Virus record (IMG/VR): IMGVR_UViG_3300011116_001007
Strand: one strand, 5' to 3'
DNA: 64,000 bases
DNA from: a virus
Taxonomy: Duplodnaviria > Caudoviricetes
The translations under genes were made by a program, and so were the position numbers. Below, one piece after another: positions 44,100 to 59,740 of this stretch (positions within the stretch are counted from its first letter, which is position 1; the number at the start of each line of letters is the position of its first letter). The notes beneath the pieces were generated by a model. The model saw only the letters and a list, made by a program, of their open reading frames with translations, did no database searches and had not been told where the DNA came from.

Positions 44100-44543
44100 A
44101 TGCCTATTTATAAATCTACTCATACTTTTCCCTATGTGTATCTTTGTCAGGAAAAAGATTCACCGTATTTCTATATCGGATATCGATACGCAAATCGAGT
44201 GCCGTCATCTGAAGATTTTGGAAAACATTATTTTACATCAAACAAGTATGTTAAAGAAAACTTTGACAAGTTTGATCATACCATAGTAGCAGAGTTTTTT
44301 GACAAAAAAGATGCATACACATTTGAATCTGAACTGATCAAAGAATTGAACTCAAAATATCTGCTGAATGCCCAGCGGATAGGGCGGCTCACGGGCACAT
44401 CATACAAACCCAAGATAACAGAAGAAGTTATTTCAAAAACTTGTGCTTTGCCCGAATGCAACAAGATTTTCACCAACTGGCGGTCAAAATGCTGCTGTAT
44501 CTCGCATAGTAAAAAATACGCAGGTATGCGACGTCACCAATAA
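44100..44543 (+). CDS. GIY-YIG (Seg-like) free-standing endonuclease
   Basis: YVY...FYIGYR...YFTS...AY.FE; Cys-rich C-terminus; opposite strand to neighbours upstream. Confidence 0.7.
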   Translation: MPIYKSTHTFPYVYLCQEKDSPYFYIGYRYANRVPSSEDFGKHYFTSNKYVKENFDKFDHTIVAEFFDKKDAYTFESELIKELNSKYLLNAQRIGRLTGTSYKPKITEEVISKTCALPECNKIFTNWRSKCCCISHSKKYAGMRRHQ

Positions 44544-46463: not shown

Positions 46464-47567
46464 ATGTATCCACTTTATGAAAATATAAATTTAAACACGT
46501 ATGAAACTTTGTTCGGTTACTATACGTTAGGATTTATACAATACCATCGGCCGGACTTGTTTATCATTGATATTAGATTAAAAAATCGATCGTGGGATAT
46601 TCCCCACGACATGGCCAATTACGATTGGCTAGAATCAAAAATACAACTGGGCTTGAGTCAAGGTCGGTCCGTGGTAATCATACCAGAAGACGAACATGTG
46701 GTGTTCGCAGTCAATACCCAACTGACTACTATATTAAACAACTATGTAAACAGTCCTGTGTATTGGATCACCATGCTGGATAGTCTGGCACAACAAGTCT
46801 ATAGAGAACGCCATCAATTCCGTATCAAAATATTAGAGTTGCCATGGTTGCTGTTGAATGAGTGCTTGACTTATTATCTAGTGGCCAACACAGCAACAAA
46901 CTTTATGCCAAATGATCAGAACTATAATTTTTTTTGTTTGATTGGAAATACTGCCAGTCGTCACAAAGGCAACTTAGCTCGAGAATTGCATAACCGACGT
47001 CTGAGCAGTCACGGATTGATCACAGTGAATAAAAATTGTTCCATTGACGCAGATCTACTGGAATTTTGCCAGGTCAATCAGGAAGTAGTATACGATCCTT
47101 CTATAAATCCAGACTATCCAATGATAGCAAGACAAACCAACGTCAATGGAACTTGGGTGTCGCAAAATGTCAAAAATTACCTATACATAGATCAACAGTA
47201 TCATCACATACCGTTGGCGATAAATCCTGAAACCATAACCAGTGCATTCAAAAGCACAGAAAAAAGCATTTGGCCCATACTGCTAGGCAAACTATTTTTA
47301 ATTTACGGCAGACCTGGATCAATGGCCTGGATACAACGATTTTACGACATTGATATAACATCATTTGCAAACATAGCATATGATGCTATTCCCGGATTTG
47401 ATTCTAACAAAATTCGATTGAATAGAATGATTGATGACAACCGAGACTTGATTCAAAATGCCAAAGATATACAAACACAATTACAACCCCAATTAGAGTG
47501 TGCTAGGTGGACATTGGGCCGAAACTTGTACAAATTTTTTGTTTCGCAATTGGAGTTTATCCCTTGA
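46464..47567 (+). CDS. Glycosyltransferase-like protein (TEK...P family)
   Basis: STEKSIWPILLGKLFLIYG motif resembles GT10/GT-B C-terminal domain; TAAATA 4 nt before ATG. Confidence 0.5.
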   Translation: MYPLYENINLNTYETLFGYYTLGFIQYHRPDLFIIDIRLKNRSWDIPHDMANYDWLESKIQLGLSQGRSVVIIPEDEHVVFAVNTQLTTILNNYVNSPVYWITMLDSLAQQVYRERHQFRIKILELPWLLLNECLTYYLVANTATNFMPNDQNYNFFCLIGNTASRHKGNLARELHNRRLSSHGLITVNKNCSIDADLLEFCQVNQEVVYDPSINPDYPMIARQTNVNGTWVSQNVKNYLYIDQQYHHIPLAINPETITSAFKSTEKSIWPILLGKLFLIYGRPGSMAWIQRFYDIDITSFANIAYDAIPGFDSNKIRLNRMIDDNRDLIQNAKDIQTQLQPQLECARWTLGRNLYKFFVSQLEFIP

Positions 47568-48280
47568 AAACCTTAACCACTGCTGGGTGTAGTTTTACGT
47601 TGGATAACTATCAAAAAACCTGGGCCAATTATCTGTCAGAAAGTCTCAACTGTGATCTGGTAAATCTTGGTGCCAGAGGTGCTGGAATTGATTTTATTAC
47701 CAAAAGAGTAATGTATCACTGTGCCCACAATGACACAGATTTAATTGTTGTGATGTTGCCCAGTGTGGATAGATTTGATTGGTATTTGGATCAACACCAT
47801 CCATTAAAAACCAATGGCCTATCCATAGCCAGTTGGCAAAACGGGAAGAATCCTTCGTTGATGGCACTGGACGGTCAGCCAAATTATACTGAAGGATATT
47901 CTTTATCCGGCGGCGAAATACGTGGGCACAAACGTCATTGGTTCAAATATTATTACAGTGAAACTTCTGCATTGTTGAATTATTGGACTGCCGTTTATAA
48001 TTTAGAAAATTTTTTCAAAATTAAAAATATACCATACTATTTTACCACTGCGTATGATAAAGACAATCTAGTGGAACAGTCCTACAATCAAACTCAAAAC
48101 AGCAGCAATTTCAATTGGATTTTTGATTGTATCAATTGGGAGAAATTTATATTTTATCAATCCAATCGGGGATTTCTAAATTTTACAAAAGATCAAAAAT
48201 TTAACATTGTAAACAATCATCCAGTGACCGATGCACATAAGTCTTGGGTTGACAATGTTTTACTGACAAAATTTAATTGA
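47564..48280 (+). CDS. SGNH/GDSL-like protein
   Basis: AGCSFT...W...VNLG.RG.G...HP..AH; TTG start with GGAG SD. Confidence 0.55.
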   Translation: MKTLTTAGCSFTLDNYQKTWANYLSESLNCDLVNLGARGAGIDFITKRVMYHCAHNDTDLIVVMLPSVDRFDWYLDQHHPLKTNGLSIASWQNGKNPSLMALDGQPNYTEGYSLSGGEIRGHKRHWFKYYYSETSALLNYWTAVYNLENFFKIKNIPYYFTTAYDKDNLVEQSYNQTQNSSNFNWIFDCINWEKFIFYQSNRGFLNFTKDQKFNIVNNHPVTDAHKSWVDNVLLTKFN

Positions 48281-48284
48281 ATGA

Positions 48285-48575
48285 TCACTGCAAAATCATA
48301 CGCATTAACCCGATGGAGTCGATTGTGACCAACAGGCCGCAGTTGGCCAGCATGCCAAAAGATCTACGGCTATAAGAAGCCCACCCATACATACAACACT
48401 GGCAAATAAAAACAGGATAGATAAGAACCAAAGGCGGTGTTGGAACAGTGAGCGCCATAGTAACACTACATCCGATACTAAGCGCCCAAGCCGTAGTTTC
48501 AATGATAAAACGTAAAGGGTATGCTCGATAGTCATCTTTGATCCAGGTTGTGATGTTGATTAAAACATTGCTCAT
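48285..48575 (-). CDS. Small 3-TM membrane protein
   Basis: Three hydrophobic segments. Confidence 0.7.
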   Translation of the reverse strand: MSNVLINITTWIKDDYRAYPLRFIIETTAWALSIGCSVTMALTVPTPPLVLIYPVFICQCCMYGWASYSRRSFGMLANCGLLVTIDSIGLMRMILQ

Positions 48576-49741
48576 GTTCTGTCAGAAAAATAATTTTGCT
48601 TTTCTCCAACTCGATCAAGATCGGTGGTCATGCAATGCACTCCGCCGTCATAAAAATATATTTGTGGAATATCTATCACGTGAACGGTGATTCCATACTT
48701 CTCTAATTTAGAATTAAGTTGATCGTTTTTTACCAGAGTAATAACATTTTTTGTGTCAACCACCAGCATATTTACATCAAACACACTTTCCCCAGATGAT
48801 CCTACCCAAGAATCAAAGCTATTTTCTACTAGGTCTATCAACTCATCGTCGGTCTCGTGGCCTGGGTACCACCATCGATTTCGTATTCTCTTAGAGAGTT
48901 CTTTATGTGCTGCCATTGGGTTATTATTACGAACATATATAACTTCCCAGCCGGGAAAATACCTATCATAATCAATTACCAAGTCAGGATCGTCATGTGC
49001 AACAATTAGTCCTGGACAAATAACACAAAATATGCCATCTGTGTGACCGACTGAATCAATCATATGATTTCTGTAATCTGCAAATTCAGTATCATAGATG
49101 GTCTGACGCTTAGCCAAGTCACGATCTGCTGCCATTGTTCCAAAATACAGATCTTGTCCAATTCTATTTAATAGTCCGCCGTCGGACATTGCCCAGTCAA
49201 CAGTTTGATTTCCCTGCTGCTTGACAAGGTCTAATATATCACCATAACAATTGTTAAAATGAGTCAGCCAACCCATTTCTCCTGCCAAGTTAAAATGATC
49301 GTATGCTTCGTTTATTTGTGCAGTAGGAGCATGTGCTAAAAAATCATAAACACTATTGTATCTATCCCACGAAGGATCTGCTATGTTAGCGTAATATTTT
49401 TTCCAGTACTGATCGCTCCAATTCTGATAATAAAATTTATTGCCTATCATCATCATGGTATTACGAGGTTGTAATGGTGGACAAGGGCCAATTTGTTTTT
49501 TCTCATCAAAAGGATACTGAAAATTTACATTTGGTCTTAGTACCTGCACCCCGAGATCTTGCAATTTTTTTACTAATAATTTTAGTCCACTCTCAGTATC
49601 AATGGACATACATTCAAGCAAGCTTCTTAATCGTGGCTGTTTGATCCAAGAAAAATATTCAGGAGGAACTGTCTGCCCCACAATACAGGTTTGTAATGGA
49701 TCCCAATTCTGATGTATGCTAAACATTATTTTTTTGTTCAA
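48572..49741 (-). CDS. Amidinotransferase family protein A
   Basis: WDPL..CIVG, PR, DGG, GHTDG, DVNMLV, GGVHC.T. Confidence 0.85.
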   Translation of the reverse strand: MNKKIMFSIHQNWDPLQTCIVGQTVPPEYFSWIKQPRLRSLLECMSIDTESGLKLLVKKLQDLGVQVLRPNVNFQYPFDEKKQIGPCPPLQPRNTMMMIGNKFYYQNWSDQYWKKYYANIADPSWDRYNSVYDFLAHAPTAQINEAYDHFNLAGEMGWLTHFNNCYGDILDLVKQQGNQTVDWAMSDGGLLNRIGQDLYFGTMAADRDLAKRQTIYDTEFADYRNHMIDSVGHTDGIFCVICPGLIVAHDDPDLVIDYDRYFPGWEVIYVRNNNPMAAHKELSKRIRNRWWYPGHETDDELIDLVENSFDSWVGSSGESVFDVNMLVVDTKNVITLVKNDQLNSKLEKYGITVHVIDIPQIYFYDGGVHCMTTDLDRVGEKQNYFSDRT

Positions 49742-50744
49742 ACAATTGCTGACTGGCTAGATTCTTACCTTTGGCTTCAACTTGAATATCCCAATCGTCA
49801 CTAAAGGTCAATGCCCAGTCGTTCACAGCACGATTCCACATGAAGTCACTGTGTGCGCGAAGCTTTTGCTTGCGATATCCGCGATCAAGTAGTTGGTCGA
49901 GGTCAGGTCTGACAAGGGGATCGTGATCCACCAAAACGTCTTCACGACTAACACTGTAGTGAAGAACAGGACGAGTACCACGCCAAGACTCCAACACGCG
50001 ACGCGCCCTAGGGTCCACGGGTGTGATGTATTCACCGGTGCGGATCCAGTGGTGGTGGATGTCCAGCGTAAGAGCACAATGCTCAGCCACAGCCAAAGTA
50101 ACGTCGATACCATTTGTCATCTCATCATTCTCGATGGCAATTAAGTTTCTAGCTTCGGGAGTAAGTCTGCCCAAAGTACGTAGAAATTTAGCGGGGCCAC
50201 CTTTACCGCTTAAATGTACATTTATCTTGAAACCGTGATCATGCCAATTTTTTCCATAACCCATCCAACGAGCCATGTCCACATGATATTCAAATTCTAG
50301 TATGCTGCGTTCTACAATTTCGTCTGCTTCCGATGCCAGCACACAAAACTGTCCAGGATGAAAGCTCAGTCGCACACCCAGTCTGCGGGCAGTTTCACCA
50401 ACAGGGGCAAAGATACGAGCACAGTGATTTTGTATTTCTTGACGCTGCCACCAGTTGATCCATGACGGTTCAGTGTAGCCTTGCAGCATTTCACTGCCCA
50501 GTCGTACCATTCTGCGACCTTCAGGCAGCGTGGCCACACGTTCAATCAGTCTGACTGCTGCGGCAGCATTGTGATTCATTATGTCCCATTGACGCTGTTC
50601 TGCCTCGGCTGCATGCTCGCGGAGCCAGCGCATGGTGGTTGATCGGCCGTTTAGATCACGGTCCACAGCATTGACTTTCATGCCGCCACATTCGGACGGA
50701 TCATTGAGCCATTTGCAACAAAAACCAATTTGGGGTGTAGTCAT
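49719..50744 (-). CDS. uvsE: UV-damage endonuclease UvsE/UVDE
   Basis: GFCC, RLSFHPGQF.VL, ENDE, LDIHHH, HYS, AHSD, VEAK.K. Confidence 0.92.
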   Translation of the reverse strand: MTTPQIGFCCKWLNDPSECGGMKVNAVDRDLNGRSTTMRWLREHAAEAEQRQWDIMNHNAAAAVRLIERVATLPEGRRMVRLGSEMLQGYTEPSWINWWQRQEIQNHCARIFAPVGETARRLGVRLSFHPGQFCVLASEADEIVERSILEFEYHVDMARWMGYGKNWHDHGFKINVHLSGKGGPAKFLRTLGRLTPEARNLIAIENDEMTNGIDVTLAVAEHCALTLDIHHHWIRTGEYITPVDPRARRVLESWRGTRPVLHYSVSREDVLVDHDPLVRPDLDQLLDRGYRKQKLRAHSDFMWNRAVNDWALTFSDDWDIQVEAKGKNLASQQLFEQKNNV

Positions 50745-50750
50745 GCGTTA

Positions 50751-50779
50751 ATTATACGACACTTTAAGTATTGTGTCAA
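50751..50779 (-). promoter_or_regulatory. Consensus sigma70 promoter, leaderless uvsE
   Basis: TTGACA-N17-TATAAT-N6-ATG. Confidence 0.85.
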
Positions 50780-50805
50780 TCACATGTTGCGCCAAACCCA
50801 CACAG

Positions 50806-51717
50806 TTAAGTTCTTACCAAATCCAGCGTCACACAATGAAAGCCGCCGCCCAAAGTTCGGCTGTGGCGCAACTGCAATGGAATTACGGTAAAATTGTAGC
50901 TTTTTAATGTTTTGATCAATTCGGTTTGCGCTTGATCCACAATCACTGTGGCGGGATTGACCACCAACATGTTCATACCTATCCATTTTGAAGCATATGG
51001 ATATTGATAAAAGTCCTGTGCAACCACATCTGACACCCAAATTTTATGCCATCCATCAAACACTTGGGGCACATGGTCAAACCCTACCCTTGATGCATTG
51101 ATCATGACCAGGCCTTCTCTCAAGGGCATTATGGTGCTGTCAATATGCACACCTGAATAAAAATTGCACAGTTCTATTTTTACATCAGGAAATTGGTCAC
51201 ACAGCCAATTGTAAGCTGCGCGATTGCCCGACGGCGATTCCAAAAATAGCATGTGATCATTGAGTCGTAGCACATTGGCAGCATCCATGGTCATGCCTTC
51301 GTTCCTGGGCATAAACCGGTAGTGATCTGCACTGTCAACAATTTCATGATAACATTGCAATTCCATATCTCTGCAGGGATACATCATTGCAGGATCAACT
51401 ATGGTTGAACCATACACAAGCAGCCGATCACGTGGACAATAGTTGGAAAAACCATCATGCAATTGAAAGTTCAGCGGATCAGGACGCACTACTTCCACAC
51501 CCAGCTCAGTCAATGTTGAAGCCAGCTTGTCCAGGTCTTCATTGGTTTCATCAATGATTGTTTGTGGCACAGGCCCACTTGGAACTGGAGTCGCCGTCCA
51601 GGTGGTCTTTTTGCTTTCCTGGCTGAACACAGGATCATTAACTGGCCAATTGGCATTGGTGGCGGATCCAACTATTATTTTGCGTAATTGGCTCCACTCG
51701 TTAACACTTGATATCAT
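50806..51717 (-). CDS. Amidinotransferase family protein B (glycine/inosamine amidinotransferase-like)
   Basis: NEW..LRKIIVG, CPRD, DAANV, HIDST, MNMLV, GGGFHCVT. Confidence 0.9.
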   Translation of the reverse strand: MISSVNEWSQLRKIIVGSATNANWPVNDPVFSQESKKTTWTATPVPSGPVPQTIIDETNEDLDKLASTLTELGVEVVRPDPLNFQLHDGFSNYCPRDRLLVYGSTIVDPAMMYPCRDMELQCYHEIVDSADHYRFMPRNEGMTMDAANVLRLNDHMLFLESPSGNRAAYNWLCDQFPDVKIELCNFYSGVHIDSTIMPLREGLVMINASRVGFDHVPQVFDGWHKIWVSDVVAQDFYQYPYASKWIGMNMLVVNPATVIVDQAQTELIKTLKSYNFTVIPLQLRHSRTLGGGFHCVTLDLVRT

Positions 51718-52232
51718 ACATGCCCTGTAATTTGTAAGGTGTACCTGGGCTGAACACCCAAGTTGGCTGCCAGATGTGGAGTATCATAATGCCATTCTAC
51801 CACATCTCCTGCCAGCCACTCAGTAAATGGCCGGCCATCAAATTCAGCATAGTGTCCCGACTTCCAGTCTTCCATGTACACTATGGCTCGTCGTATTGTG
51901 GTTTCGCGGCCTTGCAAATCAAACAACTGTACATATCTTTTGTACAAGTCCTGATGTGTAGGAAGTATAGTGCCTGGCCGCATGCGGTAGTAACTGGTGC
52001 CAATGTCTTTCCATCCCATCTCAGTGTAAATTTCTAAGAATTTTTTATTGAAACTGGGTTGCGGTTGCCGCATGTCGCACATGTCGCCTGTGAATCGATT
52101 GGCAAACCCCAGGTCAAGCCAATATTGCAAGTTAGCTAGATCATTGAATTCTTCATTCAAATAATTCAGCTTTTTAAATTCATCATTCCAGAACACTGGA
52201 AGATGATATTTAAGCAGGTCTTGTGTTGCCAT
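51714..52232 (-). CDS. Fe(II)/2OG dioxygenase (Asp/Asn beta-hydroxylase-like)
   Basis: PG..LP.HQD...PH.A.N.G..PR..LQITG (HxD...H). Confidence 0.75.
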   Translation of the reverse strand: MATQDLLKYHLPVFWNDEFKKLNYLNEEFNDLANLQYWLDLGFANRFTGDMCDMRQPQPSFNKKFLEIYTEMGWKDIGTSYYRMRPGTILPTHQDLYKRYVQLFDLQGRETTIRRAIVYMEDWKSGHYAEFDGRPFTEWLAGDVVEWHYDTPHLAANLGVQPRYTLQITGHV

Positions 52233-53463
52233 AATGAATCACAGTGACACCGTCGGCGGCCTTATTCAGTTTGCGCCAAGGATCCACAATAACGCTACCC
52301 CCAGGGATTGCACAATATGGCTGTGTGTCCAGTTGATCGCCGGTGTATTCATATGTGATCTTGCGATTGTGTGCCCACAGCACCACATGAGGCCCGTGCA
52401 ATTCTGCCACAACGTCAGCAGGGTCATCTGCCAAGGGGTCAAGATAAACAACTGAATGTCCCAGTTCTTTGATATAATGGCCTACCAAGGTGGAGTATGA
52501 TCCAATGCAATAAGGAACATCGGGCTTGTAGGCTTTGCCGTGTATGGCAATAGGCAAGTCTTCGCCTGTGATCCACCCGCTTGCTTGGTCCACCAAGAAC
52601 TGGGCTAGATTCTTTGCTTGAATTTCTCTAGCATGCATCACAGTATCAAACAAGTCGTAACCAATGTCATACTCTTTGGCCAGCCAACGCAAGGCAATGT
52701 TGTCTCGTGGATGACATGCACCTGCATCGCCCATGCCTGCTGTCATGTATTTGGGACCCATGATTCTCATGGTGCTACGTGCCAATGCATCTGTGACCAC
52801 ATCAACGTTGATATGTCCTATACGCAATGCAAAATCTTGAACCATATTGACCAGGCCTACTTTGGCACTGATAAATGTGTTGTAGAAAATCTTCATTGCT
52901 TCGCATTCGTCCCAGGTGCCAATTTCGTAACGTGGATCGTTTTGCATGATGGTTTTGTACAGGTCAATCAGCTCGCCAGCCAGTGCGTTAGGGTTGCCGT
53001 CATCGGTACCAATCATGACCATTTCAGGATTGACCATATCCCATTTGACCGAACCCATGGCAATCAAGTAAGGGTTGTACAAAAACTGATGCTGTGGATC
53101 CAGCAGTGGGAAAAACTTACGTCGGGTAGTGCCCGGTAACACTGTGCTGATCAGCACAATTTTTTTAGAACTTCTAGCATACTTGTTGACTTTTTGTATG
53201 GCATCAATCACAGCTTCGTGCCCAAAGTCTCTGGGTTCCATGTGGCTTGACGGCACAGACCCATCGTAGCCTTCAGCATGCGGTGTTGGCACAGCAATAA
53301 AAATCCATTCGCTCTCATTCACCAACTCTTCAATATCACAAACTTTTACCGAGTCACTGGTTCGTGGGTAAATATCGTAGCCTCTAACTTCATGCTTCTC
53401 TGCCATGACTTCGGCACAATCTAGTCCCAGTTTGCCAATGCCAATAAATCCAATTTTTTTCAT
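52210..53463 (-). CDS. UDP-glucose/GDP-mannose dehydrogenase family
   Basis: GIGKLG, IAVPTP, STV.PGTT, E..K.FYN, GACHPRD (catalytic Cys). Confidence 0.9.
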   Translation of the reverse strand: MKKIGFIGIGKLGLDCAEVMAEKHEVRGYDIYPRTSDSVKVCDIEELVNESEWIFIAVPTPHAEGYDGSVPSSHMEPRDFGHEAVIDAIQKVNKYARSSKKIVLISTVLPGTTRRKFFPLLDPQHQFLYNPYLIAMGSVKWDMVNPEMVMIGTDDGNPNALAGELIDLYKTIMQNDPRYEIGTWDECEAMKIFYNTFISAKVGLVNMVQDFALRIGHINVDVVTDALARSTMRIMGPKYMTAGMGDAGACHPRDNIALRWLAKEYDIGYDLFDTVMHAREIQAKNLAQFLVDQASGWITGEDLPIAIHGKAYKPDVPYCIGSYSTLVGHYIKELGHSVVYLDPLADDPADVVAELHGPHVVLWAHNRKITYEYTGDQLDTQPYCAIPGGSVIVDPWRKLNKAADGVTVIHYGNTRPA

Positions 53464-54744
53464 ATGAGTGTTCCTTTAGATAGATTATATAATTTTTTGC
53501 ATGATGTTGTCAACCATGACATAACAATTTATCGCTTTTGGCCTCATGGTTCAAAAAAACTTGAGCATCTGAAACCTCTAGTAGAAAATAAGCATTGGTT
53601 TCTGCACATGACCAGTCCCACAGTAATTTTTCACGACCAAGAACCATTGAATTTTACTTACTGGACCACAGAAGACTTTGTTCAACACTGGAAAAATCAT
53701 GTGATCAATTATGAATTAAATCCTCTTTTGCATTTGAATACTGAACAAGCCAATTACCAAACGTCGTTGCATCTCAGAGGATTAATTGGTAAGAATTTGT
53801 ACGACTATGTTTTGCTTGTGCATTCGGAAAAAAATAGCAAAGCAATGGATACTTACTTTCAACATGGATTTTTGCCTGTGTATTACTGGGCACATGCCAT
53901 GATTGCCGCCGATTGGTTTAGATATGCTGTTCATGATCCTGTTCTGCAATACAATACTGACACGTTCACACAAGATTTTTTAATATACAATCGTGCCTGG
54001 TCGGGCACCAGAGAATACCGATTGTATTTTTTAGATCAATTGGTTCGGGCAGGGTTGACAAAACATTGCCGCACCAGTTTTGCTCCTGAAGATTCAGGAG
54101 TTCATTACAGTCAACATGCATTTGTTAACCCACAGTTGGCCATCAACTCCACTGAACTAGAAACAGTGTTGCCATTGAATACACACCATTCAGATGCCAG
54201 TGCTGATTATAACAATCAAGATTATGCACAAACAGGTATGGAAATTGTGTTGGAAACACTGTTTGATGATGATCGATGGCATCTCACAGAAAAAGCCCTG
54301 CGACCAATTGCTTGCGGCAAACCCTTTATGTTGGTTGCCACAGCTGGCAGTTTGAAATATCTTCGTAGTTACGGTTTTGAAACATTTGACGATTTTATTG
54401 ACGAGTCGTATGATCTTGAAACAGATCCTGTGGCTAGATTAACTGCTGTGATTCGAGAGATGGCTAGAATAAGCGCTCTCAGTTCCGCTGACAAAATTGT
54501 GCTATGGCATCGACTGCACCTGATTGCTGCCAGAAACAAACAGAGATTTTTTTCAGCTGAATGGCAAACCGGTATAGTGCAAGAATACCTTGACAATATG
54601 AATCAAGCCCTGACCACAGTCAATCAACACTGTACCGGAAAGCACTGGGAACAATTTCAAAATATAAATCGTGGCAGATCGCCGGATGAGATTGAGCAGA
54701 TATCATGCTATTTAAAGTCTAGACAAAATTCCATCCCAATCTGA
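53464..54744 (+). CDS. Glycosyltransferase-like protein (TEK...P family)
   Basis: LTEKALRPIACGKPF...GSL.YLRSYGF.TF.DFIDESYD. Confidence 0.55.
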   Translation: MSVPLDRLYNFLHDVVNHDITIYRFWPHGSKKLEHLKPLVENKHWFLHMTSPTVIFHDQEPLNFTYWTTEDFVQHWKNHVINYELNPLLHLNTEQANYQTSLHLRGLIGKNLYDYVLLVHSEKNSKAMDTYFQHGFLPVYYWAHAMIAADWFRYAVHDPVLQYNTDTFTQDFLIYNRAWSGTREYRLYFLDQLVRAGLTKHCRTSFAPEDSGVHYSQHAFVNPQLAINSTELETVLPLNTHHSDASADYNNQDYAQTGMEIVLETLFDDDRWHLTEKALRPIACGKPFMLVATAGSLKYLRSYGFETFDDFIDESYDLETDPVARLTAVIREMARISALSSADKIVLWHRLHLIAARNKQRFFSAEWQTGIVQEYLDNMNQALTTVNQHCTGKHWEQFQNINRGRSPDEIEQISCYLKSRQNSIPI

Positions 54745-55086: not shown

Positions 55087-55875
55087 ATGACATTTGTATT
55101 TGATTTAATTTCTGACCTACACATTGATTCCTGGGGAGAATTTTCCTGGGAATCTCAAGCCACCAGCCCTGTATGCATCGTAGCCGGCGATATTGGCCGA
55201 AATAGACCTGATGTGTTCAAAGCCTTGCATCACCTGGGACAATGTTACCAAGCGGTGTTTTATATTGACGGCAATGACGAACATGCAGGTCGCTTGGACA
55301 ATGTTGGCAAAAGCTATCTTGACCTGGCTCGAAAAATTGACAAGATTCCAAACGTGGTTTACCTCCAAGACAACATGGTAGTGGCCGACGGAGTGGCTAT
55401 CTTGGGCACAAATGGCTGGTGCGCTTTTGATTTTGATCTGGTACAAGATCCTGCCGAAGTAGAACGTTGGTGCCAAGAAGAATACAGCATCACTGAAGAT
55501 ATGACTCAAAAACTAGTTAAAATGGCCGGTACAGATGCTGCATACATGATGAATTCAGTCAAGCGACTGCAGACACATAGAGACGTTAAAAAAATTATCA
55601 TGGTTACCCATGTTGTTCCTGATCCTGCACTGATAGCACATGACATTGATCTAGTTGATACACCGCGATTCAATGTCATGGGCAATCGTTACATGATGCA
55701 GGCTCTTGCCGCTGATACTGAAAACAAAATTGACACATGGTGTTTTGGACACTATCATGGCTCAGTGGATCAAACTCGCAGTGGAATAAGATTTGTCAAC
55801 AACTGTAGAGGCAGGGCAGATGTACCATACGCTCGTCAAGTGTATCACCCCAAGCGCATAGTGATCGAATACTAA
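55087..55875 (+). CDS. Calcineurin-like metallophosphoesterase (variant)
   Basis: SDLH, AGDI, GNDEH, THVVP, FGHYH. Confidence 0.8.
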   Translation: MTFVFDLISDLHIDSWGEFSWESQATSPVCIVAGDIGRNRPDVFKALHHLGQCYQAVFYIDGNDEHAGRLDNVGKSYLDLARKIDKIPNVVYLQDNMVVADGVAILGTNGWCAFDFDLVQDPAEVERWCQEEYSITEDMTQKLVKMAGTDAAYMMNSVKRLQTHRDVKKIIMVTHVVPDPALIAHDIDLVDTPRFNVMGNRYMMQALAADTENKIDTWCFGHYHGSVDQTRSGIRFVNNCRGRADVPYARQVYHPKRIVIEY

Positions 55876-56183
55876 CCCATGCTTTCAGGTTCTAGCTTGA
55901 TCTGCAGGGGAAATCCTTGTGCTCGAGCCAGCATGGTCACTTCCACACCTTTTTGTTCAGCAATTTCGTATGGCAATACTGCCACACATGCAGCGCCAGT
56001 TTGATGCACATCCACCGTGATCTGTTGGGCAGTTTCCACAGTGTAATTGAAATAATCGATCAGTGATTCAATCACAAATTCCATAGAAGTTTGATTGTCA
56101 TTGAGATAGACCACTTTGAACAATGGCGGTTCTTTGACAGCTTCTGATGGTTTAATTTTGGTACGGGTATCTGATTGCGACAT
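55872..56183 (-). CDS. clpS: Clp protease adaptor ClpS
   Basis: PP.FKVVYLNDN.TSMEFV...VH..G...EIAE.K...A...FPL. Confidence 0.9.
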   Translation of the reverse strand: MSQSDTRTKIKPSEAVKEPPLFKVVYLNDNQTSMEFVIESLIDYFNYTVETAQQITVDVHQTGAACVAVLPYEIAEQKGVEVTMLARAQGFPLQIKLEPESMG

Positions 56184-56240
56184 ATTGGTTCCTATGTAGA
56201 AGTGTGCAACACCATGTTGCACACTCTATGTTTTATTATA

Positions 56241-56693
56241 TTACTTAGCGTAAGAAATAGCGATCGTCTTGGGCTTTTGTGCCTCAGGAATATCACGTAC
56301 AAGGTGAATATTCAAGATTCCCAGTTCCAAGTGTGCATGGTCTATTTCCACATGATCAGCCAGTTTGAATTCACGACGGAAATCTCTTGCGCTAATACCC
56401 TTGTGTAGATAGTTAATGTCAGGTAAATCTTCTTCCTTGATTGTGTTCTTACCCTCAATGACCAGGATGTTTTTGTCCTTGGTCACTGTCAAATTGTCCA
56501 GGGCAAATCCAGCCACAGCCAAACTGATCATGTATTCGTCCTCGTTGATTTGGACCACATTGTATGGAGGGTAATTTGTGCCAGACTGTTGAGAGTGTAT
56601 GCGATTCAGCTCATCAAACATGTGGTCGAAACCAATACCAAATTTGGTGAGTGCTGGAATATCCAGGGCGCGAAGATGTAAAGTTTTTGTCAT
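56241..56693 (-). CDS. Small heat shock protein (IbpA/Hsp20)
   Basis: GIGFD.MF..L...NYPPYNV...LAVAGF...YLHKGISAR.F.R.F.L...G.L.I.L...PE..KP..I.I. Confidence 0.95.
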   Translation of the reverse strand: MTKTLHLRALDIPALTKFGIGFDHMFDELNRIHSQQSGTNYPPYNVVQINEDEYMISLAVAGFALDNLTVTKDKNILVIEGKNTIKEEDLPDINYLHKGISARDFRREFKLADHVEIDHAHLELGILNIHLVRDIPEAQKPKTIAISYAK

Positions 56694-56700
56694 TTGTTTT

Positions 56701-56767
56701 CTCCTTTAATAAGCAAGTATGACGTTTTGAGTAGACCCCACCATGGGCATCTACAAGTGTATTTATA
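56701..56767 (-). promoter_or_regulatory. TATAAATA late promoter plus ROSE-like RNA thermometer 5' UTR
   Basis: TATAAATA 56760-56767; hairpin 56731-56754; CUU-G-CUU-AUUA-AAGGAG 56701-56717. Confidence 0.65.
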
Positions 56768-56776
56768 CAGGAAATC

Positions 56777-57028
56777 TCAATGGTTGTCAAGACTCATTGG
56801 CTCAATTATTCTATAATCCACAGTTTTTACAGTGGGATTCCAGGTCAGCGCAAAAAAACTATACATATCATCAGGCTCCAAAACCACACGCTTGACATAT
56901 TTTACTGTTTTGGTTTGATAAGTTATGTTGTATTTTTTGCTCCAGGTGTCTAGCTCTGCGCCCAATACCATCCAGGCCCAGGTGTACGCTTCTTTGGATT
57001 TTGATGGCAAATCAAAAGCAATGTACAT
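56777..57028 (-). CDS. Hypothetical protein (LRW-like F.LTW motif)
   Basis: ...YSFFALTWN... Confidence 0.6.
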   Translation of the reverse strand: MYIAFDLPSKSKEAYTWAWMVLGAELDTWSKKYNITYQTKTVKYVKRVVLEPDDMYSFFALTWNPTVKTVDYRIIEPMSLDNH

Positions 57029-57030
57029 GA

Positions 57031-58239
57031 CTAAAAATTAGCTGCCTTTAGTGCAATAGGAGCCTCAACTTGATCCACATCAATTTCCACAGTTTTTATG
57101 CCTTGTGTGTGATATTGACGCAGATAAAACATGTGAGGTAGCAGCACACGTTCCAGCTCAGAATGCAGGCCACGAGCGCCTGTTTTGTTTTTCATGGTGC
57201 GTTCAGCAATGAGATCCAAGCTGGCATCAGTAAACTTCAACTCCACACTGTCACAATTGAACAACCAACTGTATTGCGAAATGTAGCTGTGTTTGACCTG
57301 TGTCAATATCATCACCAGATCTGCTTTGCTGAGTTCTTCCAGCGACACCCAGCTTTGGAATCGACCCACAAACTCTGGAATCATGCCATAACGGATTAGA
57401 TCTTCTGGAGTAGTTTTGGCCAAGTGCAAAGAACTGTCACGATCCATATTGGCACCAAATCCAATGGTGGTACCTTTGGTACGATTTTTTACTATGTTGT
57501 CCAGGCCCACAAATGCGCCGCCGCCTATAAACAGGATATTCCTAGTATCAATTTCCACAGTTTCACCCGATGGGTGCTTGCGGCCACCTTGCGGAGTGAT
57601 CCTACATTTGGTACCTTCTACCAGCTTGAGCAAGGCCTGTTGTACGCCTTCTCCACTGACATCTCTAGTGATACTGGCACTTTCACTTTTGCGACTGATC
57701 TTGTCTATTTCGTCAATGAACACAATACCGCGCTGTGTTTTTTCCACGTCATTGCCGGCAGCAGCAAACAGTCTACCAATCATGCTTTCAACATCATCAC
57801 CCACATATCCGGCTTCGGTAAGGCTGGTAGCATCAGCAATCACAAATGGCACATCTAAGTAACGTGCCACAGTTCGAGCCAGCAGTGTTTTGCCCGAACC
57901 AGTTGGTCCCAACATCAAGATATTGGTTTTTTCAATTTCTACATTGACGTCTTGATTGTTGATACGCTTGTAATGATTGACCACAGCCACACTCAACACT
58001 TGTTTAGCTTGTTCTTGTCCAATCACGTATCTGTCAAGGTGCCGCTTGATCTCCATTGGGTCCAATGAATCGCCTGTGTCAGCAGGTGTGACAATCAGAT
58101 CATCTTTCAACAAGGTCTCGCACAATTCCACACATTCGTTGCAGATGGCCACGGCTTCGCCAACTATGAGTTTGGTCACAATGTCCTTGTGTTTGCCGCA
58201 AAAACTGCAAGTAGTGTTACTGGTTTCGTTATTTTTCAT
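57031..58239 (-). CDS. clpX: ATP-dependent Clp protease ATPase subunit
   Basis: Zn domain CSFCGK...[30 protein letters not shown] loop, GARGL. Confidence 0.95.
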
Positions 58240-59740
58240 TGGTTTGTTTCTTGAGTTGTTCTGCCACTTGGTCACGCTCGCTATCGCTCAGCAAATCTGG
58301 ATCGTATTCTCCGCCATCTATTTTTTCAATTAAGTAGTTGATATAAGCGTCGTCATAAGTGTAACTGTCTGTGACATTTTTGTCAACCTCCATCCAGTCC
58401 TGACCATTGAATTTGTATACAACTGTGGGCTGCACATCTATTCGAACAAACGTATCTCCTCGCTTGGCATCCGTGGGGAACACTGTGCCAAAGCTGCTGT
58501 CAGGATATTCCATCCAGGGCAATTGTTTGATAATGCCCATCCTGAATCGTATGCGTTGGTTCTTTAATGTGTCAGCTGGATGGTCAAGTTTCCAGCGTTT
58601 GATCCTGGCTTTGATCCGGGGGTCGTCTTCGTCAATTTCTTCATCGTTGGCCTGGATTCCTGACAACACAATCTCAAGTTTTTCTTTGTCTCTTAAAAAA
58701 GGACCATCGCCAACATCACAATTTCTGTTGGGGCAGAACGGTCCAATACCTGGTGCATTCAGCAGCGGTGTGCCACACTTGTAGCAAGGTTCTAATTCGG
58801 GATCACTGGGTTCGGGGCGATATACTTGAATTGGCGCAGGTTCTATACCTGGAGGAGTATCACTGCCTGCAGGTGTAAACAAGTAGGGATGATCTTTGAT
58901 ATCAAATTCTTTTTCTGCTGGCAGCTCGGGATCGGGCACAGGGTCATCTACTGTTTCGGGTATTTCTTCACTATCTTTGGCTTTCTCTCTGGCCCATTTC
59001 AAACTTTCAGACGCTGCCAGCAACAACATGATGGCCAGCGGATCAAACACGCATACCAACAAGATGATAACCCAACGCACAGCACGTTCCAACACGTTGG
59101 TGTCAGGATTGTCTCCGTAGATCAATGCTGCGATATATTTTATCGGTCCAACCTCTGCCTCCACTTTGCGTACCTCGGCGGCAATAGGCGCACGGGCATT
59201 GTTAAGTTCCGCGATAGACTTCTGCGACTGTAGTATTTCATTTTGAAGGCGACTACGTTCTTTCTGCTGGGACTTTCGCATAGCCACAGCTTTGTCGGCA
59301 CCTTTTTCATCTGTTGAGCGGCCCAGTACTGAGTCCACTCCCTCATCCATCTGTTTAAGTGCCTTACGGTTTGCTTCAATATTCTCTTTTTCGGTTTTGA
59401 TTTTTTCATCATATATTGCTATCTTGGCTTGTACATCACCTGATACCAAGTTCTGATCGCTGTGTGCTTTTGACAAAAATCCAAAGATACCCATTGATGT
59501 GATCAGCATCAACATCAGCACAGCTGGCACTAGATACAATTTCATCAACCATCTAGCACGTGACCAATATTCATGCAGCCACAAGGTCACAACAACTTTG
59601 GCCAATTCAAGGATTGATCCCATGACCATGATGGGAATCACTGCTGCTGCAAATATAGCGGTCAAGCCGGCTATGCTGTAGTAGGCAGCAATGACACTTA
59701 GGCTCAAGGCCACAAATAAGGTAATAAGACTGAGGAACAT
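58229..59740 (-). CDS. Membrane-anchored coiled-coil protein with acidic linker, CxxC motif and C-terminal domain
   Basis: N-terminal TMs, long coiled coil, TM, CYKC...FCPNRNC; TAAATA 5 nt before ATG. Confidence 0.75.

Follow-up and report, generated by a model that had tools for sequence, protein, structure and literature searches.

A conserved four-gene phage cassette that may make and transfer a guanidino sugar

The window, a 64,000-nucleotide stretch of DNA, comes from a giant freshwater phage. The region of interest within it contains the following genes and promoter-like sites:

46464..47567, + strand: 367-aa protein, possible distant GT-B; accessory, with an ET..TEK..P..GK region common to g426
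47507..48280, + strand: 257-aa SGNH/DUF6071-like protein; accessory
48285..48575, - strand: 96-aa protein with no assigned function; usual partner 3' of UvdE
48572..49741, - strand: amidinotransferase A (AT-A), 389 aa from a TTG; accessory
49719..50744, - strand: UvdE-family UV-damage endonuclease, 341 aa; outside the sugar module
50751..50779, - strand: promoter-like site P2, TTGACA-N17-TATAAT
50806..51717, - strand: amidinotransferase B (AT-B), StrB1-type, 303 aa; core, last operon gene
51714..52232, - strand: sm172, predicted minimal Fe(II)/2-oxoglutarate dioxygenase, 172 aa; core
52210..53463, - strand: UGDH-like NDP-sugar 6-dehydrogenase, 417 aa; core, operon gene 1
53484..53513, - strand: promoter-like site P1, TTGACA-N18-TATAAT
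53464..54744, + strand: g426, 426 aa, predicted GT-B fold; core

The original prediction treated this 8.3-kb stretch (46464-54744) as a single pathway. The ORFs that it named are all present where it placed them, but the conserved, functional unit consists of four genes: the dehydrogenase, sm172, AT-B and g426. Within this phage lineage, the first three adjoin one another in 84-86 of 87 loci, with g426 lying divergently upstream in 76 of the 87, a linkage that holds even where identity falls to 55% for the dehydrogenase and 25-32% for g426. The overlapping operon that had been claimed is borne out, since the dehydrogenase and sm172 genes overlap by 23 nt, the sm172 and AT-B genes overlap by 4 nt, and the synteny is conserved; the three genes form a translationally coupled operon, with g426 divergent. 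P1, a 12/12 match to the σ70-type consensus, is followed by AAGGA and then by the dehydrogenase ATG at 53463. On the opposite strand, it falls inside the initial 50 nt of the g426 ORF, and in many relatives TTGCAA or TTGACA-N18-TATAAT is found at this position. Because P1 is a perfect σ70-type promoter, the cassette is probably expressed early, which is not as expected for decoration of the virion, one of the roles first proposed. P2 is also a 12/12 match and lies 6 nt 5' of the UvdE ATG (a leaderless start). Of 75 relatives, 42 have a site of this type, scoring 11-12 of 12, either 3' of AT-B or 5' of UvdE; P2 thus marks a boundary between two transcription units.

The remaining genes lie outside the functional unit. 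UvdE (Pfam UvdE, 1.2e-26; phrog_8420, 8.7e-67; PDB 3bzj, 8.6e-14; HPGQ and ENDE motifs retained) is a repair gene unrelated to the sugar cassette, and its distance from AT-B varies among relatives. Although it lies between AT-A and AT-B, it was left out of the original prediction. The 96-aa gene is present in 48 loci and is directly 3' of UvdE wherever AT-A is absent. AT-A, which is found in 8 of the 87 loci, is inserted between these two genes and appears, from the promoter arrangement, to be co-transcribed with UvdE rather than with the cassette. It is a divergent member of the AT-B family, belonging to a phage-specific subfamily (PDB AGAT, 9e-7; 21-25% identity to cellular StrB1-type genes in full-length alignments), and it probably starts at the ATG at 49726. 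Both amidinotransferases had been credited with Asp/His/Cys motifs; this is correct for AT-B and only partly so for AT-A, which retains H233/D235 and C370 but has Asn in place of the PRD aspartate, with the loss of one guanidino-binding Asp. In L008, relatives of AT-A (~40% identity) adjoin an NDP-sugar epimerase, a mini-DegT and a g426-like protein.

The genes for the 367-aa and SGNH-like proteins turn up in 4 of the 87 loci, always together; like AT-A, they are strain-variable add-ons. The 257-aa protein, which has no significant Pfam match, is SGNH/DUF6071-like by language-model features only (Atlas feature score 0.96-0.98 against DUF6071/SGNH clusters); this likeness, previously noted, stands, while a part in the pathway does not. 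The 367-aa protein has only the TEK-motif region in common with g426 (BLASTP 5e-5 over 69 aa; hhalign probability 58%, E 1e-4, 53 columns), does not match the g426 HMM, and is possibly a distant GT-B. Consequently, of the two flanking TEK..P genes first described as glycosyltransferase-like, g426 is retained as a core gene with a predicted GT-B fold and the other is accessory. Co-occurrence across phages likewise holds for the four-gene unit (~85 loci) and not for the add-ons.

Related genes are also linked in a second phage lineage, represented by 84 loci picked via another sm172 subfamily. Here an AT-B-type amidinotransferase is adjacent in 76 of the 84 and a g426-type GT-B is present in 73; in 66 a mini-DegT immediately precedes the amidinotransferase, and UGDH is found in 47. 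The order is mini-DegT, amidinotransferase, oxygenase, GT-B. The sm172 domain is often joined to a GT-B domain, and g426 paralogues form tandem arrays of up to four. The sm172-GT-B fusions seen in other phages are ~590 aa, a GT-B-sm172-GT-B protein is 1018 aa, and a DegT-sm172 fusion was seen once.

The first operon gene matches the N-terminal (3e-14) and central (5e-14) Pfam domains of the UDPG/MGDP dehydrogenase family, TIGR03026 (8.9e-37, under the model's cut-off) and phrog_9148 (1e-85). Its C-terminal domain is not recognized by Pfam, and NCBIfam scores fall under the cut-offs. Alignment with PDB sequences reveals GxGxxG, ExxKxxxN and the catalytic Cys within GACHPRD; thus the catalytic Cys, Lys and Asn are retained. 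The protein has 54% aa identity to a gene of Synechococcus phage Bellamy annotated as UDP-glucose 6-dehydrogenase, which is inside an operon of GT, carbamoyltransferase, NadE-like and methyltransferase genes.

AT-B aligns end to end with StrB1 (PDB 1bwd, E 2.6e-62). Residues D97, D145, H191, D193 and C295, which comprise the catalytic triad and both guanidino-binding Asp, are invariant. Its 7487 homologues include more than 100 clusters at 79-96% identity; cellular relatives are at most 42% identical, and the AT-B clade is phage only. Since StrB1 is the best solved relative of AT-B and the window contains two amidinotransferases, synthesis of a streptidine-like aminocyclitol (antibiotic) by two such enzymes has to be considered. 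This is extremely improbable. AT-A is missing from ~90% of relatives, is transcribed separately with a DNA-repair gene and lacks one guanidino-binding Asp, and so the two-enzyme logic fails; no inositol dehydrogenase, StsC-type aminotransferase or other aminotransferase, kinase, phosphatase, or relative of StrG/StrH is present. In addition, the S. griseus ORFs at the presumed StrG and StrH positions show no relation to sm172 or g426.

Family membership by itself does not dictate which acceptor AT-B uses, because cellular StrB1-type genes sit in non-sugar contexts. Among cellular homologues with 37-41% identity to AT-B, one in Microcoleus neighbors genes for lysine 2,3-aminomutase and an ATP-grasp ligase, and one in an acidobacterium neighbors an Orn/DAP decarboxylase and an N-methyltransferase. 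Such neighborhoods favor a free guanidino metabolite made from a non-sugar amine (polyamine, lysine or β-lysine), which could function in DNA condensation, signalling or antagonism, the adjacent sugar genes being merely co-located. The lack of an aminotransferase in this lineage's cassette is consistent with such a product, as is the label "antibiotic synthesis genes" given, without experiments, to the homologues in Synechococcus phage S-SCSM2R (PMC12801897). However, a free metabolite is rather unlikely: the cellular contexts contain no sm172, UGDH or g426, the phage cassette has no decarboxylase, aminomutase or ligase, the amidinotransferase, sm172 and GT-B are linked across two phage lineages, and sm172 is fused to GT-B, DegT and, by fold, NDP-sugar enzymes.

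No sequence match to sm172 is found in Pfam or PDB. Its AF2 model (pLDDT 95.5) contains a DSBH, and its structural matches are Fe/2OG dioxygenases, the top ones being prolyl 4-hydroxylases: P. putida P4H (4j25, E 2.5e-7), chlorovirus vCPH (5c5t) and C-P4H-II. D95 and H153 are invariant among 60 homologues, and H93 and R163 are at least 90% conserved. From its modeled fold, sm172 is a predicted Fe/2OG oxygenase of a family that has no Pfam model. The model of g426 (AF2 pLDDT 91.9) yields only GT-B enzymes in Foldseek (best E 2.6e-3). Using VIA-align, its matches include T4 BGT (1c3j, Z 11.9 over 278 aa), POGLUT1 and POGLUT2 (Z 10.5-11.0; POGLUT2, Z 11.0), α1,3-FucT (Z 10.7) and T4 AGT (Z 10.6). 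There is no sequence relation to curated GT families; none of 3958 homologues has a Pfam match, and R183, E264 and E276 are invariant. The family is acidic, mostly of pI 5.5-6.5, and a structure search reveals proteins in which a g426-like fold is joined to an NDP-sugar epimerase/dehydratase or a methyltransferase. Thus, g426 is predicted to be a GT-B-fold glycosyltransferase of a new kind, in a family without a Pfam model.

The prolyl 4-hydroxylase matches suggest hydroxylation-dependent protein glycosylation, following the logic of collagen, Skp1 and mimivirus L230. Here sm172 would hydroxylate a protein of the phage or its host at Pro, Lys or Asp, g426 would add a uronic acid derived from the dehydrogenase, and AT-B would modify the sugar or a lysine. 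Asp_Arg_Hydrox is present on 19% of the members of one Atlas cluster, g426 resembles the protein O-glucosyltransferases POGLUT1 and POGLUT2, and the oxygenase-GT fusions of phages resemble bifunctional hydroxylase-GT enzymes. Furthermore, the proteins of S-SCSM2R virions included a different amidinotransferase and one resembling prolyl dihydroxylase (PMC12801897). Nevertheless, protein glycosylation of this type is quite improbable. The DegT-sm172 fusion and the fixed order of mini-DegT, amidinotransferase and sm172 point to consecutive small-molecule steps, the joining of g426-like folds to NDP-sugar epimerases and methyltransferases argues in the same direction, and the POGLUT likeness is non-specific because the GT-B matches all lie within ~1.5 Z units of each other.

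The presence of T4 BGT and AGT among the top matches of g426 raises DNA hypermodification, in which g426 would be a similar DNA glycosyltransferase that places a charged sugar on a modified base. The T4 glucosyltransferase genes are expressed early, and P1 is of the early type; moreover, L008 interleaves AT-A-like, mini-DegT and g426-like genes with folE and queD-type genes. Yet DNA, one of the targets first proposed, is disfavored, and this possibility is very improbable. Three relatives (92-100% complete) encode neither a ThyA-family hydroxymethylase nor a C5 DNA methyltransferase, and so a hydroxymethyl-pyrimidine acceptor could not be made by known routes. The acidity of the g426 family also argues against DNA, and its tandem arrays suggest glycan chains.

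The best explanation, which we consider narrowly probable, is that the cassette makes and transfers a guanidino (uronic) sugar. The synteny in ~85 loci, the domain fusions, and the sister cassette with its sugar aminotransferase connect the operon with a glycosyltransferase-fold protein and with nucleotide-sugar chemistry. In the proposed pathway, the UGDH-like enzyme would oxidize C6 of an NDP-hexose to give a uronic acid, and sm172 would then oxidize or hydroxylate a sugar carbon; most economically, it would make a keto group that is subsequently aminated by a sugar aminotransferase. AT-B would shift the amidino group of L-arginine, via a Cys295 thiouronium, onto the sugar amine, generating the guanidino sugar and ornithine. 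Finally, the fast-evolving g426 would transfer the product, probably to a glycan or protein belonging to either the infected cell or the phage. The cationic, guanidinylated sugar or glycan of the original prediction therefore survives as the best reading, but its amine source is absent from this lineage's cassette: the window contains no aminotransferase, and across the ~87 loci none lies closer than 8 kb to AT-B. Consequently, the amine must be supplied either by a DegT encoded at another place in the genome or by the host as an amino sugar (GlcN phosphate, for example). Relatives with near-complete genomes carry genes for both a full DegT and a mini-DegT away from the cassette.

Each component can be compared with known systems. 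AT-B resembles StrB1, the S. griseus L-arginine:inosamine-phosphate amidinotransferase (1BWD), along its full length (~39% identical to the S. griseus version in L108), with identical PRD, DAA, HxD and GGGFHC motifs; it differs in having an internal deletion and ~45 fewer residues, and in a locus without any streptidine partner. Like P. putida P4H (4J25), sm172 has a DSBH core, an HxD..H facial triad and an Arg ten residues past the distal His. Unlike P4H-type enzymes, to which it is 14-16% identical, it is only 172 aa, has no Pfam match, and in other phages is fused to GT-B or DegT rather than to peptide-binding domains. The two-Rossmann GT-B architecture of g426 (residues 3-381) is that of T4 BGT (1C3J), POGLUT1/2 and GT10 fucosyltransferases, but g426 has 6-10% identity to such enzymes, lacks a Pfam/CAZy-type signature and is acidic, and no hydroxymethyl-pyrimidine pathway occurs in relatives.

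Among phage loci, Campylobacter phage CP220 gp086 ("possible glycine amidinotransferase"; 25% identity, intact triad) adjoins nucleotide-diphospho-sugar transferases. Unlike AT-B, it lies among five radical-SAM genes with no UGDH, and the 173-aa protein upstream is unrelated to sm172. In S-SCSM2R, ORF308, which is homologous to sm172 (29% identity, E 9e-21), is directly 5' of the amidinotransferase ORF309 (36% identity), and the genes overlap, as here; however, the pair is surrounded by GT genes (three or four), a mini-DegT and a radical-SAM gene, with no adjacent dehydrogenase. The mini-DegT cassette of the second lineage differs from the present one, which has no DegT, the order dehydrogenase, oxygenase, amidinotransferase, and a separate, divergent GT-B. 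Nevertheless, the two share the same three families (AT-B type, sm172 and g426) and tight packing, often with UGDH nearby.

The reading frames that the original prediction had assigned to a single pathway for a guanidinylated sugar (46464-54744) are present where it had placed them, with corrections. Together with two promoter-like sites, P1 and P2, they are arranged as follows:

46464-47567, plus strand: 367-aa protein
47507-48280, plus strand: 257-aa protein
48285-48575, minus strand: 96-aa protein
48572-49741, minus strand: AT-A, the second amidinotransferase
49719-50744, minus strand: UvdE (homology to PF03851 and PDB 3bzj)
50779-50751, minus strand: P2, a perfect TTGACA-N17-TATAAT without a Shine-Dalgarno (SD) sequence
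50806-51717, minus strand: AT-B, amidinotransferase (homology to StrB1, 1bwd)
51714-52232, minus strand: sm172, 172-aa oxygenase (predicted DSBH fold and HxD...H...R)
52210-53463, minus strand: UGDH-like dehydrogenase (PF03721, PF00984)
53513-53484, minus strand: P1, a perfect σ70 consensus; AAGGA comes next, then the start codon (ATG) of the dehydrogenase
53464-54744, plus strand: g426, 426-aa protein (predicted GT-B fold)

Both perfect σ70 consensus sites of the region, P1 and P2, are on its minus strand. P1 falls entirely within the initial 50 nt of the g426 reading frame, but is read from the opposite strand. Within 53461-53513 the start codons of the dehydrogenase and g426 stand back to back (CAT/ATG), and the -35/-10/SD region of the dehydrogenase operon is contained in the first 17 codons of g426, again on the opposite strand. 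As the g426 N-terminus over the P1 region (MSVPLDRLYNFL...) is kept in relatives, 53461-53513 may be under a double constraint. With 6 nt between the end of P2 and the ATG of UvdE, the UvdE mRNA is probably leaderless. The positions of P1 and P2 are reoccupied in relatives, the P2 site being found in 42 of 75. Given the placement of P1 and P2 and the overlaps between genes (23 nt for dehydrogenase/sm172, 4 nt for sm172/AT-B), the dehydrogenase, sm172, and AT-B are predicted to form one operon, and UvdE, AT-A, and the 96-aa gene another. The T4 late promoter motif (TATAAATA) does not occur in the cassette; its only two copies in the window, at 44105 and 56760, are at chance level. Judged only by promoter type, the cassette would be expressed early.

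The linkage of these genes was followed in 80 IMG/VR loci picked by AT-B (68-84% identity) plus metagenome contigs, with counts over 87 loci. AT-B is present in 87/87, sm172 in 86/87, the dehydrogenase in 84/87, and g426, divergent and upstream, in 76/87. This four-gene core is intact even where identity has fallen to 55% for the dehydrogenase and 25-32% for g426. UvdE is found in 71/87 loci at a variable distance, AT-A in 8/87, and the 367-aa/257-aa pair in 4/87. A second, independent sample consists of 84 IMG/VR loci picked through a different sm172 subfamily; an AT-B-type amidinotransferase lies directly upstream of the sm172-type gene in 76 of these, a g426-type GT-B is present in 73, a mini-DegT just before the amidinotransferase in 66, and a UGDH in 47. 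Co-occurrence across phages, proposed as a check on the pathway, is observed for AT-B, sm172, the dehydrogenase, and g426 in the first sample and for the amidinotransferase, oxygenase, and GT-B in the second. The idea of one pathway extending over all of 46464-54744 is supported in part, for the four linked genes; it does not extend to UvdE, which the original prediction had omitted, to AT-A, or to the 367-aa/257-aa pair. For annotation, three parts of the 8.3-kb stretch should be told apart: the conserved core, the DNA-repair gene as an interloper, and add-ons that vary among strains. The window is assigned to an uncultured T4-like jumbo phage from freshwater; the closest related loci are on IMG/VR contigs of 200-364 kb, and the matching sequencing datasets, all of them DNA, are viral, riverine, and freshwater metagenomes. 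Scans with two homologous proteins returned 4 loci (P0305) and none (P0263). Hundreds of IMG/VR loci carry the cassette families; the cassette is very widespread among phages, and its families are abundant in aquatic viromes.

By its sequence, the dehydrogenase is a member of the UDP-glucose/GDP-mannose dehydrogenase family. It matches PF03721 (N-terminal, NAD-binding; 3e-14), PF00984 (central; 5e-14), and phrog_9148 (1e-85), and its Rossmann motif GIGKLG, E..K...N, and catalytic Cys in GACHPRD agree with solved UGDHs (3vtf alignment); the C-terminal domain has no Pfam match. Its substrate is not assignable, because it scores below every NCBIfam cut-off (TIGR03026, 126.8 bits versus 189.8 required), the equivalog models for UDP-Glc, UDP-GlcNAc, UDP-ManNAc, and GDP-Man all being far under theirs. 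When the whole stretch is compared with phage records by Megablast, the sole match is 332 nt of the Bellamy dehydrogenase gene.

The match of AT-B to StrB1 (1bwd; E 2.6e-62, query 2-303 with chain 4-340) covers its full length, AGAT is matched at 4e-26, and the hydrolase models give 0.25 (arginine deiminase) and 1.5e-3 (DDAH). D97 (PRD), D145 (DAA), H191, D193, and C295 are invariant in its alignment, the CP220 homologue included. Thus AT-B, which has 7487 homologues, is assigned to the AGAT/StrB1 amidinotransferase family (pentein fold), with a predicted Arg-dependent transfer of the amidino group to an amine. Cellular StrB1-type genes are at most 42% identical to it, and sm172, UGDH, and g426 were never found beside them. 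Two cellular contexts were examined. In Microcoleus, the amidinotransferase is grouped with a lysine 2,3-aminomutase and an ATP-grasp ligase, and a gene for a MatE exporter is close by; in an acidobacterium, the amidinotransferase accompanies an NNMT-type N-methyltransferase and an Orn/DAP decarboxylase. These clusters (L095:6698-10094 and L101:6074-9071) are small and apparently undescribed. Since neither context involves a sugar, a "StrB1-like" label leaves the acceptor undefined. These cellular contexts agree with the alternative that the phage enzymes make a free guanidino metabolite, with which the phage-specific linkage and the gene fusions disagree; we regard this as unlikely.

The other two core proteins, the oxygenase and the GT-B protein, have no Pfam model. 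For sm172 there is no Pfam match even at E≤10 and no PDB sequence match, and no similarity to gp085, the CP220 upstream protein; its 562 cluster representatives make up a separate family of their own. In an alignment of 60 members D95, R115, and H153 are invariant and H93 and R163 are at least 90% conserved. The resulting HxD...H...R signature corresponds to the triad that binds iron plus a basic residue facing the C5 carboxylate of 2OG. The AF2 model (pLDDT 95.5) best matches P. putida prolyl hydroxylase (E 2.5e-7, TM 0.61), and among its 429 PDB matches at E≤1e-3, the best 50 are mostly Fe/2OG dioxygenases, the rest being other cupin-fold enzymes. These data place sm172 in the Fe(II)/2-oxoglutarate dioxygenase superfamily (DSBH fold), with a predicted enzyme activity. 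A complex prediction for sm172 with g426 (score 0.00) gives no verdict and speaks neither for nor against binding.

None of the 3958 homologues of g426 has a Pfam domain, and g426 itself has no Pfam match; GT10 is a lead by features only (0.79). The g426 model (pLDDT 91.9) has a GT-B fold, in which a cleft separates two Rossmann-like domains. VIA-align finds 30 GT-B structures at Z≥8 (8-11.9) that span residues 3-390, including T4 β-glucosyltransferase (BGT; Z 11.9 over 278 residues), POGLUT2 (11.0), α1,3-fucosyltransferase (10.7), and T4 α-glucosyltransferase (AGT; 10.6). Foldseek returns GT-B enzymes only (glycogen synthase, probability 0.99). Thus, g426 is a putative glycosyltransferase, and its transfer of a sugar is predicted from the model. 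The resemblance to T4 BGT and AGT, like the early-type promoter, would suit glycosylation of DNA. Against this, no ThyA-family hydroxymethylase or C5-methyltransferase is encoded by three relatives of 92-100% completeness, and the g426 family is acidic; DNA as the target is very unlikely. Tandem g426-type GT-B genes, up to four, occur in the second-lineage loci. In L214, L238, and L259, four or five such paralogues are present, mostly in tandem around the mini-DegT, amidinotransferase, and oxygenase cassette. The paralogue arrays suggest oligosaccharide assembly.

A sugar is taken to be the substrate of the cassette because of gene fusions, the second sample, and gene contexts in other phages. 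The sm172 domain is fused to g426-type GT-B domains (sm172-GT, ~590 aa; GT-sm172-GT, 1018 aa) and also to a DegT sugar aminotransferase. By structure search, folds resembling g426 are joined in one protein with an NDP-sugar epimerase/dehydratase domain or with a methyltransferase domain. In S-SCSM2R an sm172/amidinotransferase pair lies amid GTs, a mini-DegT, and a radical-SAM gene; the Bellamy dehydrogenase homologue is in a GT/carbamoyltransferase/NadE/methyltransferase operon. Hydroxylation of a protein followed by its O-glycosylation would also be in keeping with the oxygenase-GT fusions, the P4H-like fold of sm172, and the POGLUT-like matches, but the DegT-sm172 fusion suits it less well, as does the constant order of DegT, amidinotransferase, and sm172, and it is quite improbable.

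The preferred reading is that the cassette makes and transfers a guanidino sugar. 2OG oxygenases, for example TET and thymine 7-hydroxylase, oxidise alcohols to carbonyls. In the simplest chemistry for the canonical cassette (mini-DegT, amidinotransferase, sm172-type oxygenase, GT-B; side by side in L221, for example), sm172 would oxidise a sugar carbinol to the ketone, the mini-DegT would transaminate the keto-sugar, the amidinotransferase would amidinate the sugar amine while converting arginine to ornithine, and the GT-B protein would transfer the product. UGDH would contribute a carboxylate. The window holds an aminotransferase-less variant of this uncharacterised phage cassette: it has no aminotransferase, the 8 kb around AT-B contain none in ~87 loci, and mini-DegT, epimerase, and S-SCSM2R GT/rSAM queries have no match in the window. 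What is said here of whole genomes comes from three near-complete relatives of 320-364 kb (G001-G003, the records behind L014, L051, and L063). A full-length DegT and a mini-DegT are encoded there, far from the cassette, so the amine could be supplied in trans or come from a host amino-sugar phosphate. As a speculation, GlcN-phosphate would resemble the aminocyclitol phosphate used by StrB1. A wider proposal, possible but doubtful, is that aquatic phages make a guanidino-substituted sugar nucleotide, here probably a zwitterionic guanidino-uronic one, of a class not described for any glycoconjugate. The keto group for amination would come from the new oxygenase family and the amidino group from the StrB1-type amidinotransferase; early in infection, the new GT-B family would attach the sugar to proteins or to the surface of the infected cell. 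Blocking of superinfection or masking of receptors are possible purposes.

AT-A, which has only 44 homologues, is by its alignments a divergent, phage-specific amidinotransferase subfamily. It matches AGAT in its C-terminal region (9.3e-7) and cellular StrB1-type genes over its full length (21-25% identity, E down to 4e-13). Both amidinotransferases had been said to keep their Asp/His/Cys motifs. This is fully so for AT-B; in AT-A the catalytic H233, D235, and C370 are invariant, but the guanidino-binding Asp of PRD is replaced (PRN in the window, PRS in P0131, a 70% relative). Relatives at ~40% identity retain PRD, and AT-A relatives have an NDP-sugar epimerase on one side and, on the other, a mini-DegT and then a g426-like protein. 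In a 99-kb freshwater phage contig (L008:7054-13314), the row consists of NDP-sugar epimerase, AT-A-like protein, mini-DegT, g426-like 579-aa protein, GTP cyclohydrolase I, HIT, and a PTPS/QueD-type protein, so that sugar/amidino genes are interleaved with 7-deazaguanine precursor genes. In addition to AT-B, G001-G003 each have two or three paralogues of the AT-A type, spread over several islands, and one in G002 adjoins a mini-DegT (130.2-131.7 kb).

The frame at 49719-50744 is, from its homology, a bona fide UvdE UV-damage endonuclease, a DNA-repair gene outside the cassette (PF03851, 1.2e-26; PDB 3bzj, 8.6e-14, in whose alignment the metal-site motifs HPGQ and ENDE are matched, as is the His cluster). 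In many relatives the AT-B/UvdE interval contains unrelated inserted cargo. This site is a hotspot for same-strand genes (L058:8914-10730, L082:8947-12565, and similar), with either a 420-aa/184-aa pair or a set of 245-aa, 419-aa, radical-SAM/SPASM, and 145-aa proteins recurring; radical-SAM excepted, the cargo proteins have no family and are unrelated to cassette proteins. The 367-aa protein has only a 53-69-residue motif region in common with g426, seen as a motif-level hhalign match, and is not matched by the g426 HMM. For the 257-aa protein, likeness to SGNH/DUF6071 comes from language-model features alone (Atlas similarity 0.96-0.98 to clusters so named); its Pfam hit to DUF6473 is not significant (E 0.023). 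Beside the cassette, 55087-58275 encodes a metallophosphoesterase and a full ClpX (NF003745, E 2e-159), and the equivalent block of L003, L005, and L006 also has ribosomal protein S21, HSP20, and ClpS (precomputed Pfam). Pfam searches of ten large ORFs elsewhere in the window were uninformative.

If its product is a guanidino sugar, the cassette would provide glycobiology with a new cationic building block, phage glycan genes with a concrete chemistry, and enzymes for guanidinylated sugars. A full-text literature search yielded no paper combining "guanidino sugar" with "amidinotransferase". Experiments on a phage amidinotransferase were likewise not found in the literature. The sole published comment found on a homologue is its annotation in S-SCSM2R as an "antibiotic synthesis gene"; a different amidinotransferase is reported from the virion proteome (PMC12801897).

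The proposal of a cationic glycan is supported in part, in that fusions and synteny argue for a sugar context, while its streptidine logic fails. A streptidine-like aminocyclitol as product is extremely improbable, with no DegT partner in the window or the 87 related loci; the inositol dehydrogenase, StsC-type aminotransferase, kinase, and phosphatase of that pathway do not accompany the amidinotransferase. The StrG and StrH positions in the S. griseus locus, where these genes are not annotated, follow the published cluster order; sm172 and g426 profiles match the ORFs at these positions with a probability of <1%, so that those ORFs are unrelated to sm172 and g426. Whereas the streptidine pathway uses two amidinations of an aminocyclitol, the second amidinotransferase of the window, AT-A, is accessory, and the enzymes here are those of known superfamilies brought together in an uncharacterised cassette.
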